Source: a virus
Taxonomy: Duplodnaviria; Heunggongvirae; Uroviricota; Caudoviricetes
Strand: one strand, 5' to 3'
Length of the DNA stretch: 37,812 bases
IMG/VR virus record: IMGVR_UViG_2778261419_000004
Coordinates: 1 to 37,812 of that record
Every line of letters begins with the position of its first letter. The stretch's first letter is position 1. Of this stretch, positions 2,762 through 28,192 are shown one piece after another. The position numbers were made by a program, and so were the translations under genes. The notes under the pieces are model-generated. The model did no database searches and was not told the origin of the DNA. It saw only the letters and a program-made list of their open reading frames with translations.

Positions 2762-3069
2762 GCTGCTTCTCCATAAATGTGTCTGCGTTTGAATATTGCG
2801 AAGGCATATTCAGCCTTAACTCTTTCGGTTATTGCATCCCAGAACCATTCAGCGGCTTTTTCCTGATAGTCACAGTCATCATCTTCCAGCCAGTCGATAG
2901 CGTCCTTAGTGTGTTCATCTGGCTTATATGAGCGAAGCATTTCGCTTATTGGGTCGCAACGTTTGCAGAGGCGATCAACTTCACTGTTGATTCGTTCGTA
3001 ATCTTCATCAGTAAAACTTGCGATTATTTGCGATATTTCACGCTTATCATTCAGAGTCAGAATCATCAT
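2758..3069 (-). CDS. Hypothetical early-left protein
   Basis: 103-aa ORF whose stop overlaps the recT start (coupled); acidic; no recognised domain. Confidence 0.55.
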   Translation of the reverse strand: MMILTLNDKREISQIIASFTDEDYERINSEVDRLCKRCDPISEMLRSYKPDEHTKDAIDWLEDDDCDYQEKAAEWFWDAITERVKAEYAFAIFKRRHIYGEAA

Positions 3070-3150
3070 CTTTCTCCTGTTCTTTGTGCTGATTGAGCAT
3101 TTTGTTCATCTGACGAATGAATTCTTCGTCTGACCAGTTATCTGTAAAAC

Positions 3151-3321
3151 TCATGGACGGCCTTGTTGTTTCAAAATATCCCAAAGCTTTTCGAGCAAAC
3201 TTTTCATTCTTGGTTGTTTAAAGTCTGCTCCGGTTAAAATATTTTTTCGTGAATGCTGTACCGATAAAATCGGGTTGAAAGGGCGAACCGATGCCGCCCC
3301 TGCAATAGCGAACTGTTGCAT
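3151..3321 (-). CDS. Small hypothetical protein (56 aa)
   Basis: Hand-translated MQQFAIAGAASVRPFNPILSVQHSRKNILTGADFKQPRMKSLLEKLWDILKQQGRP; fills an otherwise non-coding gap in the leftward operon. Not in the track. Confidence 0.3.
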   Translation of the reverse strand: MQQFAIAGAASVRPFNPILSVQHSRKNILTGADFKQPRMKSLLEKLWDILKQQGRP

Positions 3322-24650: not shown

Positions 24651-24887
24651 ATGACACACATGATCTTTCGTCATGGCGACATGAAGAAGTGGAAAGGCGT
24701 TGGCTATGACTTTGAAATCGTGAAAGCCGAAGAGCTTCAGGAATATCTGGATGCTGGTTGGTTTTCACATCCTGATGACCTTTTGAAGGATGTCGCAGAT
24801 CCAGAGCCAGAGCCAGAAGAAAAACAGCGTAAAAAGCCTGGTCGAAAACCTAAGGCGGCAGCAGATGAACCTGACAACGAAGGGTGA
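24651..24887 (+). CDS. Hypothetical small protein between coat and gp4 genes
   Basis: 78 aa from the ATG at 24651 (GGAGA upstream); Pro/Glu-rich C-terminus; overlaps the gp4 start. Confidence 0.4.
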
Positions 24888-25365
24888 TTTAGTCCTTGCG
24901 GCATTACGTAAGCTCGGTGTGGCATCAAATGCCACGTTAACCGATGTCGAACCGCAGTCTATGGAAGACGGCGTCAACGACCTTGAAATGATGATGGCTG
25001 AATGGCTTGGAGGTGATGCGTCACCTGGTATCAACGTTGGCTACATTTTCGCTGATGCAGATGTCGCTCCGGATCCTGGCGATGAGCACGGTTTGTCAAA
25101 TAACGCTATCAATGCCGTCATTTTCAACCTTGCCTGCCGCATTGCTCCAGATTATGCGCTGGAAGCGTCTGCAAAACTTATAACCACTGCCAGATACGGG
25201 AAAGAGCGACTCGTCAAACTGTCTGCAATGGACAGAGCAAAAGCCGCTAAATGTAAGTCCGGTTATCCAAACCGTATGCCTGTTGGTAGCGGTAACCAGT
25301 TGGCGAAGTGGAACGGTTGGAATTACTTCCACCGGAAGGAACCTTGCGATAACGGGAGCGAATAA
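24865..25365 (+). CDS. Tail adaptor / head completion protein (P22 gp4-like)
   Basis: 166 aa as in P22 gp4; [43 protein letters not shown] matches the recalled gp4 N-terminus. Confidence 0.85.
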
Positions 25366-26784
25366 ATGCCGATTCAGCAACTTCCGCTTATGAAAGGTGT
25401 CGGCAAAGACTTTCGAAACGCCGACTATATCGACTATCTGCCAGTGAATATGCTGGCTACACCCAAAGAAATCCTGAACAGCAGCGGATATCTTCGCTCA
25501 TTCCCTGGCATTGCCAAACGCTCTGATGTAAACGGTTTATCGCGCGGAGTCGAGTACAACATGGCGCAGAATGCTGTTTATCGTGTGTGTGGTGGCAAGC
25601 TGTACAAAGGAGAAAGCGAAGTCGGTGACGTCGCCGGAAGTGGTCGCGTATCAATGGCACATGGTCGGACATCTCAGGCTGTAGGCGTTAATGGTCAACT
25701 GGTCGAGTATCGCTATAATGGCACGGTTAAAACCGTCTCAAACTGGCCTACAGACAGCGGATTCACTCAGTATGAGTTAGGCTCAGTCCGTGACATTACG
25801 CGCTTACGTGGGCGTTATGCGTGGTCAAAAGACGGCACTGATTCATGGTTTATCACTGACCTTGAAGACGAATCGCATCCTGACCGTTACAGCGCACAAT
25901 ATCGCGCAGAATCGCAGCCGGACGGCATCATCGGTATCGGCACATGGCGAGACTTCATAGTCTGCTTTGGTTCGTCGACGATTGAATATTTCTCCCTGAC
26001 GGGGTCAACCACCGTTGGTGCCGCTTTGTATGTCGCACAGCCATCATTGATGGTGCAGAAAGGTATTGCCGGGACTTACTGCAAAACGCCGTTTGCTGAT
26101 TCGTATGCGTTCATCAGCAATCCGGCAACTGGTGCGCCGTCTGTATACATCATTGGCTCCGGTCAGGTGTCACCAATCGCCAGCGCGAGCATTGAGAAAA
26201 TTCTCCGCTCCTACACTGCTGATGAACTGGCTGATGGTGTGATGGAATCGCTGCGATTTGATGCGCATGAACTACTGATTATCCATCTTACGCGTCACGT
26301 CCTCGTGTACGACGCATCTTCAAGCGCCAATGGTCCGCAATGGTGTGTGCTGAAAACGGGCCTGTATGACGATGTGTACCGCGCTATCGACTTCATTTAC
26401 GAAGGCAATCAGATAACGTGCGGCGATAAGATGGAGTCCGTGACCGGGAAATTGCAATTCGATGTATCTTCACAATACGAAAAACAACAAGAGCATATTT
26501 TATATTCCCCTCTAATAAAGGCTGATAACGTTTTAATAAATGACCTTGAATTAGAAACATCTGGCGGCGTGTGTGATAGAATAGATAGAATATTTATATC
26601 AGCCACTACAGATGGAATTAATTACGGTCATGAGCAAATGATTGTATTACAAAAACCATTTGTATATGACAATCGCGTTTTATGGCGAAAGGTTGGTCGA
26701 GTTAGACGCCTCATTGGATTTAAATTCAGAGTTATTGCAAAAGGTCCTGTTACATTATCAGGCCTTTCTATTCGTGTAACATAA
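25366..26784 (+). CDS. Tail hub protein (P22 gp10-like) with AT-rich divergent 3' end
   Basis: 472 aa as in P22 gp10, in the expected position; the final ~320 nt are strongly AT-rich compared with the rest of the gene. Confidence 0.8.
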   Translation: MPIQQLPLMKGVGKDFRNADYIDYLPVNMLATPKEILNSSGYLRSFPGIAKRSDVNGLSRGVEYNMAQNAVYRVCGGKLYKGESEVGDVAGSGRVSMAHGRTSQAVGVNGQLVEYRYNGTVKTVSNWPTDSGFTQYELGSVRDITRLRGRYAWSKDGTDSWFITDLEDESHPDRYSAQYRAESQPDGIIGIGTWRDFIVCFGSSTIEYFSLTGSTTVGAALYVAQPSLMVQKGIAGTYCKTPFADSYAFISNPATGAPSVYIIGSGQVSPIASASIEKILRSYTADELADGVMESLRFDAHELLIIHLTRHVLVYDASSSANGPQWCVLKTGLYDDVYRAIDFIYEGNQITCGDKMESVTGKLQFDVSSQYEKQQEHILYSPLIKADNVLINDLELETSGGVCDRIDRIFISATTDGINYGHEQMIVLQKPFVYDNRVLWRKVGRVRRLIGFKFRVIAKGPVTLSGLSIRVT

Positions 26785-26805
26785 ATCGAAACTAAAGGAG
26801 TAGAT

Positions 26806-27351
26806 ATGTTGAGTGAAAACGCAAAAGATATTCCTGGATATGAAGGTTTATATGCCGTAACAGAGGATGGTCGAGTATATTCTCACTCACGTGTTGTTAA
26901 GGCTGCGCATGGCAGCACGCAACTCAGAAAGGGGCGGTGGCTAAAACAACACGAGAATAATAAAGGTTATCTATATTTGCCACTTAGTGTTGATGGAGTT
27001 AAAGTAAAATGGCTTGTGCATAGGCTTGTCGCTCTTGCTTTCGTCCCCAATCCAGAAGGCAAGCCGTTCATAAATCACATAGATAACAACCGAAAAAATA
27101 ATAATGCTTCTAATTTAGAGTGGTGTACTCAAAAGGAAAATATGAAGCATTGCTCATCTCAAGGCAGGGTGAAGTTTCCGGCTTTAAAAGGAGAAAATAA
27201 TCCAATTTCAAAGCTCTCATATGAGCAAGTAATAGAAATAAAGAAATCAAAGGGAGTTAATCAAAGAGAGCTTGCTAAAAAATACTGTGTCAGTCAGACG
27301 GTGATTCACAATATCCAGTCTGGTAAATCGTGGAGGCATGTTAATGGCTGA
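26806..27351 (+). CDS. HNH homing endonuclease (NUMOD4 plus HNH plus C-terminal HTH)
   Basis: 181 aa; NUMOD4-like [19 protein letters not shown]; [27 protein letters not shown]; C-terminal HTH-like [25 protein letters not shown]; AT-rich. Confidence 0.8.
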
Positions 27352-28192
27352 TTCGAATCTCAATGTGCCGGTAATCATCCAGGCTACGCGGCTAGACACA
27401 TCAGTCCTTCCACGCAATATCTTCTCGCAGTCATATCTGCTGTACGTTATCGCACAGGGTACTGATGTTGGTAACGTGGCGAACAAGGCCAACGAAGCAG
27501 GGCAGGGCGCTTATGACGCACAAGTCAGGAACGATGAGCAGGATGTGATTCTTGTCGATCACGAAATTCGACTGGCATCAGCTGAAGCTAAGATTCAGGA
27601 CCACGAAACAAGGATCACTAACGCAGAATCGGCGATAGTCGGCCTTGATTCACGATTAACGACAGCAGAAAACGATATTGATTATCTGACGGATGAAGTT
27701 GTCGCCATTCAAAACACGCTTTCAGACCATGAAACGCGCATCGATGCTCTGGAGTATGCCACTACTCGCAAGAAGTCAGAAGTTGTTTACTCTGGCGTAT
27801 CTGTAACCATCCCGACAGCGCCGACCAACCTTGTTAGCCTGCTGAAAACGCTCACGCCGTCATCCGGCACGTTGGCACCATTCTTCGACACCGTTAACAA
27901 CAAGATGGTTGTGTTCAACGAGAACAAAACCTTGTTCTTCAAGCTGTCGATCGTCGGGACGTGGCCCAGCGGAACCGCCAACAGGTCAATGCAGCTAACC
28001 TTTTCCGGCTCTGTTCCTGACACACTGGTAAGCAGTCGCAACTCGGCGACAACAACCGATAACATCTTGTTAGCTACGTTCTTCAGCGTGGATAAAGACG
28101 GCTTTCTTGCCACAAATGGCAGTACGTTAACCATTCAGTCAAATGGTGCGGCGTTTACTGCCACAACCATCAAAATCATTGCGGAGCAGTGA
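27344..28192 (+). CDS. Tail needle (P22 gp26-like N-terminus, extended C-terminal domain)
   Basis: N-terminal [43 protein letters not shown] matches gp26 as recalled; 282 aa versus about 233 in P22, with a novel Ser/Thr-rich C-terminal ~120 aa. Confidence 0.8.

Follow-up and report, generated by a model that had tools for sequence, protein, structure and literature searches.

The 37,812-nt stretch of tailed-phage DNA analyzed here (Caudoviricetes; positions 1 to 37,812 of IMG/VR virus record IMGVR_UViG_2778261419_000004, hereafter the window) contains a P22-like virion-assembly operon. In this operon gp10, encoding the tail hub, a 181-aa HNH gene, and gp26, encoding the tail needle, follow one another on the plus strand. 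This arrangement is probably a free-standing homing-endonuclease cassette, seated in the late operon of a P22-like (Lederbergvirus) prophage, with a foreign gp10 end as its hitch-hiker. Sequence comparison indicates that the inherited unit is a block of ~880 bp, comprising the foreign gp10 end, a spacer with a Shine-Dalgarno site, and the HNH gene, and not the HNH gene alone. We regard the locus as a natural, well-supported example of known homing-endonuclease hitch-hiking and not as a new kind of system. The parts of the locus are as follows, with loci that possess the block referred to as carriers and the GC content of third codon positions as GC3.

25366..26784, plus strand: gp10, the tail hub or "packaged DNA stabilization protein", chimeric, 472 aa (open reading frame, ORF; PF11134; solved structures)
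25366..26463, plus strand: backbone-type part of gp10, GC 0.51, GC3 0.53, 93–95% identical to Sf6, HK620, and HZ41
26464..26466, plus strand: class I left junction, the window's own and common to most carriers (diagnostic-site map, alignment, sequence, and a GC change-point at 26449)
26466..26784, plus strand: foreign, AT-rich, colinear gp10 3' end, ~106 codons, GC 0.34, GC3 0.20
26493..26497, plus strand: alternative left junction position (class II, between GAGCAT and ATTTTA), which lies within the foreign segment in the window
26785..26805, plus strand: 21-nt spacer ATCGAAACTAAAGGAGTAGAT, conserved in 34 of 34 carriers examined
26806..27351, plus strand: free-standing I-HmuI-like HNH gene, allele family hnh1, 181 aa (Pfam, Protein Data Bank, and fold match)
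27342..27351, plus strand: right junction, with TAATG at 27342–27346, the gp26 ATG at 27344, the HNH stop codon TGA at 27349–27351, and an 8-nt overlap
27344..28192, plus strand: gp26 tail needle with an Sf6-type knob, of backbone type and outside the block

The composition of gp10 breaks sharply near its 3' end. In 200-nt windows, GC drops from 0.48–0.54 to 0.35–0.37 at 26400–26500 and recovers at ~27300, and the lowest-GC 600-nt bin of the entire 37.8-kb window is this region. Within the gene, GC falls from 0.51 to 0.34, and GC3 from 0.53 over the first 1092 nt to 0.20 over the last 327 nt. A two-segment likelihood test located the shift at nt 1083 of the gene (window 26449), with twice the log-likelihood difference (2dLL) at 30.7; the same test on endonuclease-free gp10 genes returned 2dLL values of 0.7–3.4. 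An abrupt AT-rich shift running on into the HNH gene had been noticed in a sequence-only reading of the window, and these measurements bear it out.

The break in composition is accompanied by one in identity. Against gp10 of Sf6 and HK620, which is also 472 aa, the window protein aligns without gaps, with nucleotide identity falling from ~95% to 57% and amino acid identity from ~99% to 65% at the break. The foreign and standard types of 3' end differ at a proportion of synonymous sites (pS) of 0.985, which is saturated, and at a proportion of nonsynonymous sites (pN) of 0.27. Alignment to these homologues, as the sequence-only reading had advised, locates the breakpoint at ~26464–26466. The first diagnostic foreign bases are 26464/26466, so the replaced part amounts to ~106 codons (319 nt). 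That reading was thus right about the shift, but it set the start at 26440 and the length at ~110 residues, where the foreign segment begins at 26466. The right edge can be placed precisely: Sf6 and HK620 become homologous again at TAATG (27342–27346), the original overlap of the gp10 stop and gp26 start. The block that differs from Sf6 and HK620 therefore spans 26466–27341 (~880 bp), in which 319 nt of gp10 are replaced and ~557 nt are added.

Despite its mixed composition, gp10 is intact as a tail-hub gene. Its product matches positions 1–468 of the 469 in the PF11134 (Phage_stabilise) profile, the replaced C-terminus included (E = 2e-281), and the closest solved structures are Sf6 gp8 (7SG7) and P22 gp10 (8TVR, 8EAP), which are of similar size to the 472-aa protein. 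The HNH gene has its own Shine-Dalgarno sequence (AAGGAG at 26795–26800, inside the spacer and seven bases before the HNH start) and its own ATG; gp10 is complete, so the gene is embedded in neither an intron nor an intein. An Rfam search of the locus detected no intron or other RNA family, with one snoRNA match at chance level, and a scan of the locus for promoters and terminators gave nothing above chance. As no promoter, terminator, or RNA family stands out, the HNH gene appears to be transcribed with the late operon, its translation starting from a ribosome-binding site of its own.

The foreign gp10 end and the endonuclease gene occur together. We surveyed 50,697 phage records, 5,426 complete Escherichia coli genomes, IMG/VR, GTDB representatives, and metagenome contigs for carriers. 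Among the phage records, the same block was present only in Escherichia phage HZ41. The surrounding region was matched in 912 of the E. coli genomes, of which 52 have the AT-type gp10 end and the ~860 others are without the block. In all 52, the AT-type end runs directly into the HNH start, and full-length copies of both HNH alleles found in E. coli were confined to those 52 listed genomes; ~16 other E. coli genomes match only 80 nt of the HNH 5' end, from a related HNH located elsewhere. In IMG/VR, an HNH-sized insert precedes gp26 at every locus with the AT-type end (27 of 27) and at none with the standard type, and all 14 loci with the window's HNH allele (hnh1) have the AT-type end. The same pairing was observed at nine of nine metagenome loci with the AT-type end, in one Salmonella contig, and in one noisy metagenome contig. 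Sf6, HK620, and P22 have no HNH at the site, and their gp26 follows gp10 directly. The block is accordingly a presence/absence polymorphism at a single fixed site, occupied in 52 of the ~912 E. coli genomes having the region.

Endonuclease-free relatives sharing this gp10 C-terminus or composition, to which the sequence-only reading had pointed as the telling comparison, were absent from the phage, E. coli, IMG/VR, GTDB-representative, and metagenome surveys, locus L037 aside. Over the C-terminal 109 aa, the sequences from the phage, IMG/VR, and metagenome scans fall into two groups by identity to the window, one at 87% or more and the other at 70% or less; two distant carriers reached through the HNH search (L144 and L146) are 82% identical over the C-terminus. 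In L037, an endonuclease-free gp10 contains a foreign patch of ~60 nt (3012–3070, corresponding to window 26466–26523), after which standard sequence resumes and gp26 follows directly. Judged by its sequence, L037 is probably a recombinant that lost the rest of the block, including the endonuclease. Comparable endonuclease-free hybrids, which could represent resistant alleles, were not found in the 5,426 E. coli genomes, where the best full-length match was 87%.

The 181-aa protein is predicted to be an I-HmuI-like HNH (ββα-Me) endonuclease. It scores 44.1 bits against NUMOD4 (PF07463; cut-off 23.4) and 40.8 bits against HNH_3 (PF13392; cut-off 24.8). The sequence-only reading had called a NUMOD4/HNH/helix-turn-helix (HTH) gene between gp10 and gp26, and the first two domains are confirmed by profile; the third is recognized by fold, as HTH_3 scores 17.3 bits, under its cut-off of 23. 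The layout comprises a NUMOD4 or N-terminal beta domain (aa 7–60), the HNH domain (aa 70–113), and a three-helix C-terminal HTH (aa 139–171). The best sequence match in the Protein Data Bank is I-HmuI (1U3E; E = 2e-12). An AlphaFold2 model built on 49 homologues reached a predicted local distance difference test (pLDDT) score of 91 and has strands at residues 6–70. Foldseek aligned the model with 1U3E as the sole strong fold match (E = 5e-9, probability 1.00, 182 aligned columns), with a template modeling (TM) score of 0.52 for this elongated, multi-domain protein; helices 139–171 also match the HTH domains of Xre and SinR. The columns of N90, H91, N103, N112, and H115 are invariant in the 49 homologues. 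I-HmuI itself is an intron-encoded, site-specific nicking enzyme from a Bacillus phage, which cuts both intron-plus and intron-minus DNA.

Phylogenies support a separate history for the two parts of gp10. In a tree of the last 95 aa, the carriers form one clade (bootstrap 0.91; within-clade amino acid identity 0.90), and the carriers together with a Providencia prophage lie across a 100%-supported split from all standard gp10 of Escherichia, Salmonella, and Citrobacter type. When the first 360 aa are used instead, the carriers interleave with endonuclease-free relatives and Providencia is an outlier; the two trees are incongruent. The foreign gp10 end therefore descends from a lineage outside the Escherichia/Salmonella P22-like radiation and nearer to a Providencia prophage. 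Together, the sharp identity break, the complete linkage, the lack of this gp10 end in the endonuclease-free relatives surveyed, and the C-terminal clade support the proposal of the sequence-only reading that the endonuclease came with a foreign 3' segment of its neighbor. The comparison adds that the event is old and widespread, not particular to the window genome, with several HNH alleles on one foreign flank.

In the Providencia prophage, which was reached through the HNH search and is the nearest relative of native appearance, an HNH gene occupies the same site behind a related spacer, and GC is uniform at ~0.44 with no change-point, as expected of a lineage to which both the gp10 end and the endonuclease are native. 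We rejected it as the donor, as its C-terminus is ~68–71% identical in amino acids and its GC3 is ~0.45, compared with 0.20 for the foreign segment. The gp10 of the Providencia rettgeri locus (CP109846; L142 2180–3973) is called at 597 aa; compared with the enterobacterial proteins of 472 aa, its beta-propeller part contains an insertion of ~125 aa. A donor with AT-type sequence throughout gp10 was sought in several collections. A tblastn search of phages returned none, the best non-carrier being P22 at 68.5%; a word search over 5.8 billion proteins gave four hits, all carriers or fragments; GTDB representatives yielded one locus, of standard type; and IMG/VR and the metagenome contigs contained chimeric carriers or standard types only.

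The site is occupied by no fewer than three families of intact HNH alleles, namely hnh1 (181 aa, the family of the window), hnh2 (177 aa), and hnh3 (181 aa), with 50–57% amino acid identity between families. All begin with MLSE, end with WRHVNG and the stop codon, and sit behind the same spacer; the alleles are alike in their first ~60 nt and last ~25 nt. Further HNH types at the site have 75%, 68%, and 61% amino acid identity to hnh1, and more distant versions of the gene were recovered from L144, L146, and the Providencia rettgeri prophage. The ratio of nonsynonymous to synonymous substitution rates (dN/dS) of the HNH gene is 0.073 (window–L031), 0.040 (L033–L035), and 0.056 (L005–L012), and that of the foreign gp10 end among carriers is 0.06–0.13. 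Purifying selection on the HNH gene and on the foreign end is strong.

The block has also moved among backbones. It is found in gp10 backbones that are 65–95% identical, and an identical 181-aa HNH protein occurs at 12 loci whose gp10 N-terminal parts are 90–95% identical. In L035, L144, and L146, the backbones are 65–75% identical to that of the window and the compositional break falls at the same place. In three pairs of carriers, dS of the block is 3–6 times below that of the flank, and in one pair it is above it:

Window–L012: block dS 0.165, backbone dS 0.89
L005–L012: block dS 0.146 / 0.172, backbone dS 0.93
Window–L031: block dS 0.62 / 0.49, backbone dS 1.80
Window–L033, with the relation reversed: block dS 0.65, backbone dS 0.26

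By this measure, the block is usually much younger than the surrounding backbone.

Only two left junctions were seen. Class I (26464–26466) is that of the window, and class II (26493–26497) is present in HZ41 and many other carriers, including the distant backbones of L144 and L146. Each class is paired with more than one HNH allele family and occurs in unrelated backbones, and the change-points of all carriers lie at gp10 nt 1083–1087 or 1123–1129. When L144 is compared with its endonuclease-free relative L056, identity is 87–97% up to ~26480, and the foreign type begins at the class II point with no intervening stretch from another backbone. The class II point falls within a stretch coding for QQEH (codons 370–381, identity 0.83), which is among the two best-conserved nucleotide stretches of gp10. 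The junction may recur there because the endonuclease cuts at that position, because no other microhomology is usable, or because selection favors a chimera that works. No hyper-conserved patch was seen immediately to the left of the junction, and no carrier-specific single-nucleotide polymorphisms were found on that side.

The other end of gp10 has an HNH site as well. A related NUMOD4-HNH gene is located between gp4 and gp10 in Salmonella phage UPF_BP1 (L003 2520–3300) and in 27 IMG/VR loci (L066 and L076–L102). The UPF_BP1-type protein is 54% identical to that of the window overall, and the genes are 87% identical in nucleotides over 163 nt, taking in the spacer and ~140 nt at the start of the ORF; the same 21-nt spacer precedes it. 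In all 28 loci, 92 nt left over from the standard gp10 5' end stand before the HNH gene, and the functional gp10 downstream of it starts with ~120 nt of divergent type. This gp4–gp10 arrangement mirrors the gp10–gp26 block. In the Sf6 tail, the N- and C-terminal extensions of the hub jointly form an apical domain that docks on the adaptor (PMC9728967), so the two endonuclease-linked replacements touch two halves of one domain. The gp4–gp10 site is empty in the window. L017, L020, and L026, which are the same contigs as L096, L066, and L080, respectively, contain both endonucleases, one on each side of gp10, as a small island of homing-endonuclease genes (HEGs) around one essential gene. For UPF_BP1 itself, the RefSeq start of gp10 (L003 3282) seems too far downstream, as homology and an ATG (MAIQQLPLMKG...) begin at 3174, overlapping the end of the HNH ORF.

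These observations fit a homing cycle of the following form. In a mixed infection or upon prophage induction, the HNH protein would nick or cut the gp10–gp26 region of endonuclease-free relatives, and repair from the carrier genome would copy the entire block. With only 57% identity between the foreign gp10 end and the resident one, crossovers could not part the foreign end from the HNH gene, and we propose that it hitch-hikes for this reason; it would probably also remove the target of the enzyme from the carrier. Free-standing phage endonucleases are known to cut hundreds of bp from their own gene and to cause co-conversion and marker exclusion (PMC2988022), and clusters of HEGs are found at essential genes and exchange boundaries (PMC10448857).

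Several points weigh against this account. Cleavage, the target site, and homing by the HNH protein are inferred by analogy with known free-standing phage endonucleases. As I-HmuI nicks, and cuts DNA both with and without its intron, self-immunity through the foreign flank would not be guaranteed. P22-like phages are highly mosaic without the help of nucleases. The searches described above did not find a donor phage with AT-type gp10 throughout. To the left of the junction, the distant carriers show no tract of donor backbone that would mark co-conversion, which is unusual for ordinary double-strand-break repair. The HNH gene is also interrupted in some carriers, by IS1A in E. coli M160133 (NZ_CP022164), by an insertion of ~1.3 kb in ETEC6333/6334 (NZ_CP122600, NZ_CP122604), and by 776 nt in L019 (3350–4190). 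Insertion sequences inside HNH in three of the 52 E. coli copies and in L019 imply that the gene is dispensable for the prophage and sometimes decays.

A more specific form of the homing account is a tentative possibility. Synthetic home-and-rescue and cleave-and-rescue drives are engineered Cas9 systems in animals. The window offers an analogy to them only in its layout, with a nuclease directly after the recoded 3' end of an essential gene and a carrier copy that is functional and presumably cut-resistant. In a natural drive of this kind, the HNH protein would target the standard gp10 3' part, possibly at the junction (26465–26497), and the linked foreign end would act as the cut-resistant rescue copy. 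The same logic would apply to the gp10 5' end and the UPF_BP1-type HNH, so that drives would contest both termini of a single essential gene. If the target lies inside the replaced segment, the block would correspond, in nature, to the rescue-type gene drives that have been engineered.

Ordinary mosaicism, in which general or illegitimate recombination exchanged the gp10 end and the HNH gene, with the latter a passive passenger or serving another role, is unlikely. It is favored by the types of gp26 and gp4, which vary independently of gp10 in the same loci, and by the position of the junction in a highly conserved stretch (codons 370–381), where homeologous crossovers are easiest. The replaced segment may also be a structural unit, given the role of the C-terminal extension in forming the apical domain (PMC9728967). 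A passenger, however, would not readily account for an HNH gene kept intact under strong purifying selection in at least three allele families, or for linkage that is perfect in ~90 independent records. The recurrence of the same architecture at the second HNH site, a block that is younger than its flanks in most comparisons, and a product that is a full-length relative of a proven homing endonuclease likewise argue against this reading.

We consider it distinctly unlikely that the HNH protein is chiefly a competition weapon, damaging co-infecting or resident P22-like relatives, with the foreign gp10 end conferring resistance and spread of the gene being secondary. The architecture would be identical to that under homing, and the two are inseparable by sequence data. 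Expression from the late operon with its own Shine-Dalgarno sequence would have the enzyme act in lytic growth, when competitors are present, and in Bacillus phages, enzymes of the I-HmuI type are documented to cause marker exclusion (PMC2988022). The block is nevertheless present in only ~6% of E. coli genomes with the region, which argues against a large advantage.

Recoding in place, whereby a native gp10 3' end diverged quickly through AT-biased mutation or selection to escape the endonuclease, is highly improbable. The segment is indeed colinear with the standard type, of the same length, and similar in composition to the adjacent HNH gene. Yet 35% of its amino acids differ, with a pN of 0.27 and saturated pS, while it is highly conserved among carriers (0.90). 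It also groups with the Providencia prophage against all standard types (split bootstrap 1.0), recurs in backbones that are only 65–75% identical, and shows bimodal rather than graded identity (at least 87% or at most 70%, with L144/L146 at 82% and Providencia at 68% between). A morphogenetic or packaging HNH needed by the phage, like the terminase-associated HNH of HK97-like phages, is scarcely credible: although the gene belongs by position to the virion-assembly operon and its translation is coupled to that of gp26, ~94% of the related prophages in E. coli lack it, as do Sf6, HK620, and P22. It is disrupted by insertion sequences in some carriers, has the NUMOD4 plus HTH architecture of I-HmuI, and does not adjoin terminase genes.

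Among characterized systems, I-HmuI of Bacillus phage SPO1 (1U3E) has the same three parts as the window protein, namely an N-terminal beta domain, an HNH ββα-metal motif, and a C-terminal HTH, in 174 as opposed to 181 aa. Identity is ~27%, and I-HmuI is encoded in a group I intron, whereas the window gene stands free between two ORFs. The free-standing SegF, SegG, and MobE of T4-type phages, which practice intronless homing, likewise place an endonuclease by essential genes, as a presence/absence polymorphism with a co-inherited flank. Their cleavage site can be up to hundreds of bp from the gene (PMC2988022). The T4-type flank is a variable, near-identical tract, whereas that of the window is a divergent homeologous gene piece (57% nucleotide identity), fixed in every carrier and with two junctions only. 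Here the host is a temperate P22-like phage. In T4-related phages, SegH and Hef replace mobC and mobE at the same loci, according to work cited in PMC2988022. The window site likewise accepts alternative endonucleases at one fixed position, but its alleles all belong to one family (NUMOD4-HNH) with common gene ends.

The HEG islands described by Barth, Dunham, and Seed (2023; PMC10448857) share several features with the P22-like loci. HEGs lie by essential structural genes, two of them can bracket one gene (as in L017, L020, and L026), and domains or alleles are shuffled between HNH genes (here, UPF_BP1-type and window). The islands exceed 10 kb, whereas the window block is 0.9 kb with one boundary inside a gene, and P22-like phages are unmentioned in that work. 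No published HNH between gp10 and gp26 of P22-like phages was found in the accessible literature; Casjens and Thuman-Commike (2011) may mention these genes.

As a natural example, the locus is clean and well sampled: a homing endonuclease is joined inseparably to a divergent part of the essential gene beside it. The block accounts for a sharp mosaic boundary in the otherwise conserved tail-hub gene of P22-like phages and ties part of the mosaicism of temperate enterobacterial phages, and not only that of T4 or ICP1, to nuclease genes. For gp10 trees and the typing of P22-like prophages, the last ~106 codons should be handled apart from the rest, as should the first ~40 in some relatives.

The genes flanking gp10 and the HNH gene provide several further observations. 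The longest ORF for gp26 begins at 27338 (MLMADS), but this start is probably not real; that at 27344 (MADSNLN), inside the retained TAATG, is homologous to the start of Sf6 and HK620. Soon past the conserved N-terminus, identity between gp26 of HZ41 (L001 3490–3700) and that of the window (27357–27500) falls from 82% to 58%. As HZ41 and the window share the block yet differ in gp26, the needle gene appears to be exchanged independently of the block. Upstream, the gp4 adaptor gene of the window (24790–25365) is of a different type from Sf6 gp7 (L002 1010–1492; ~40–70% nucleotide identity) and is 97–100% identical to that of L017 and L018, suggesting independent mosaicism immediately upstream of gp10.

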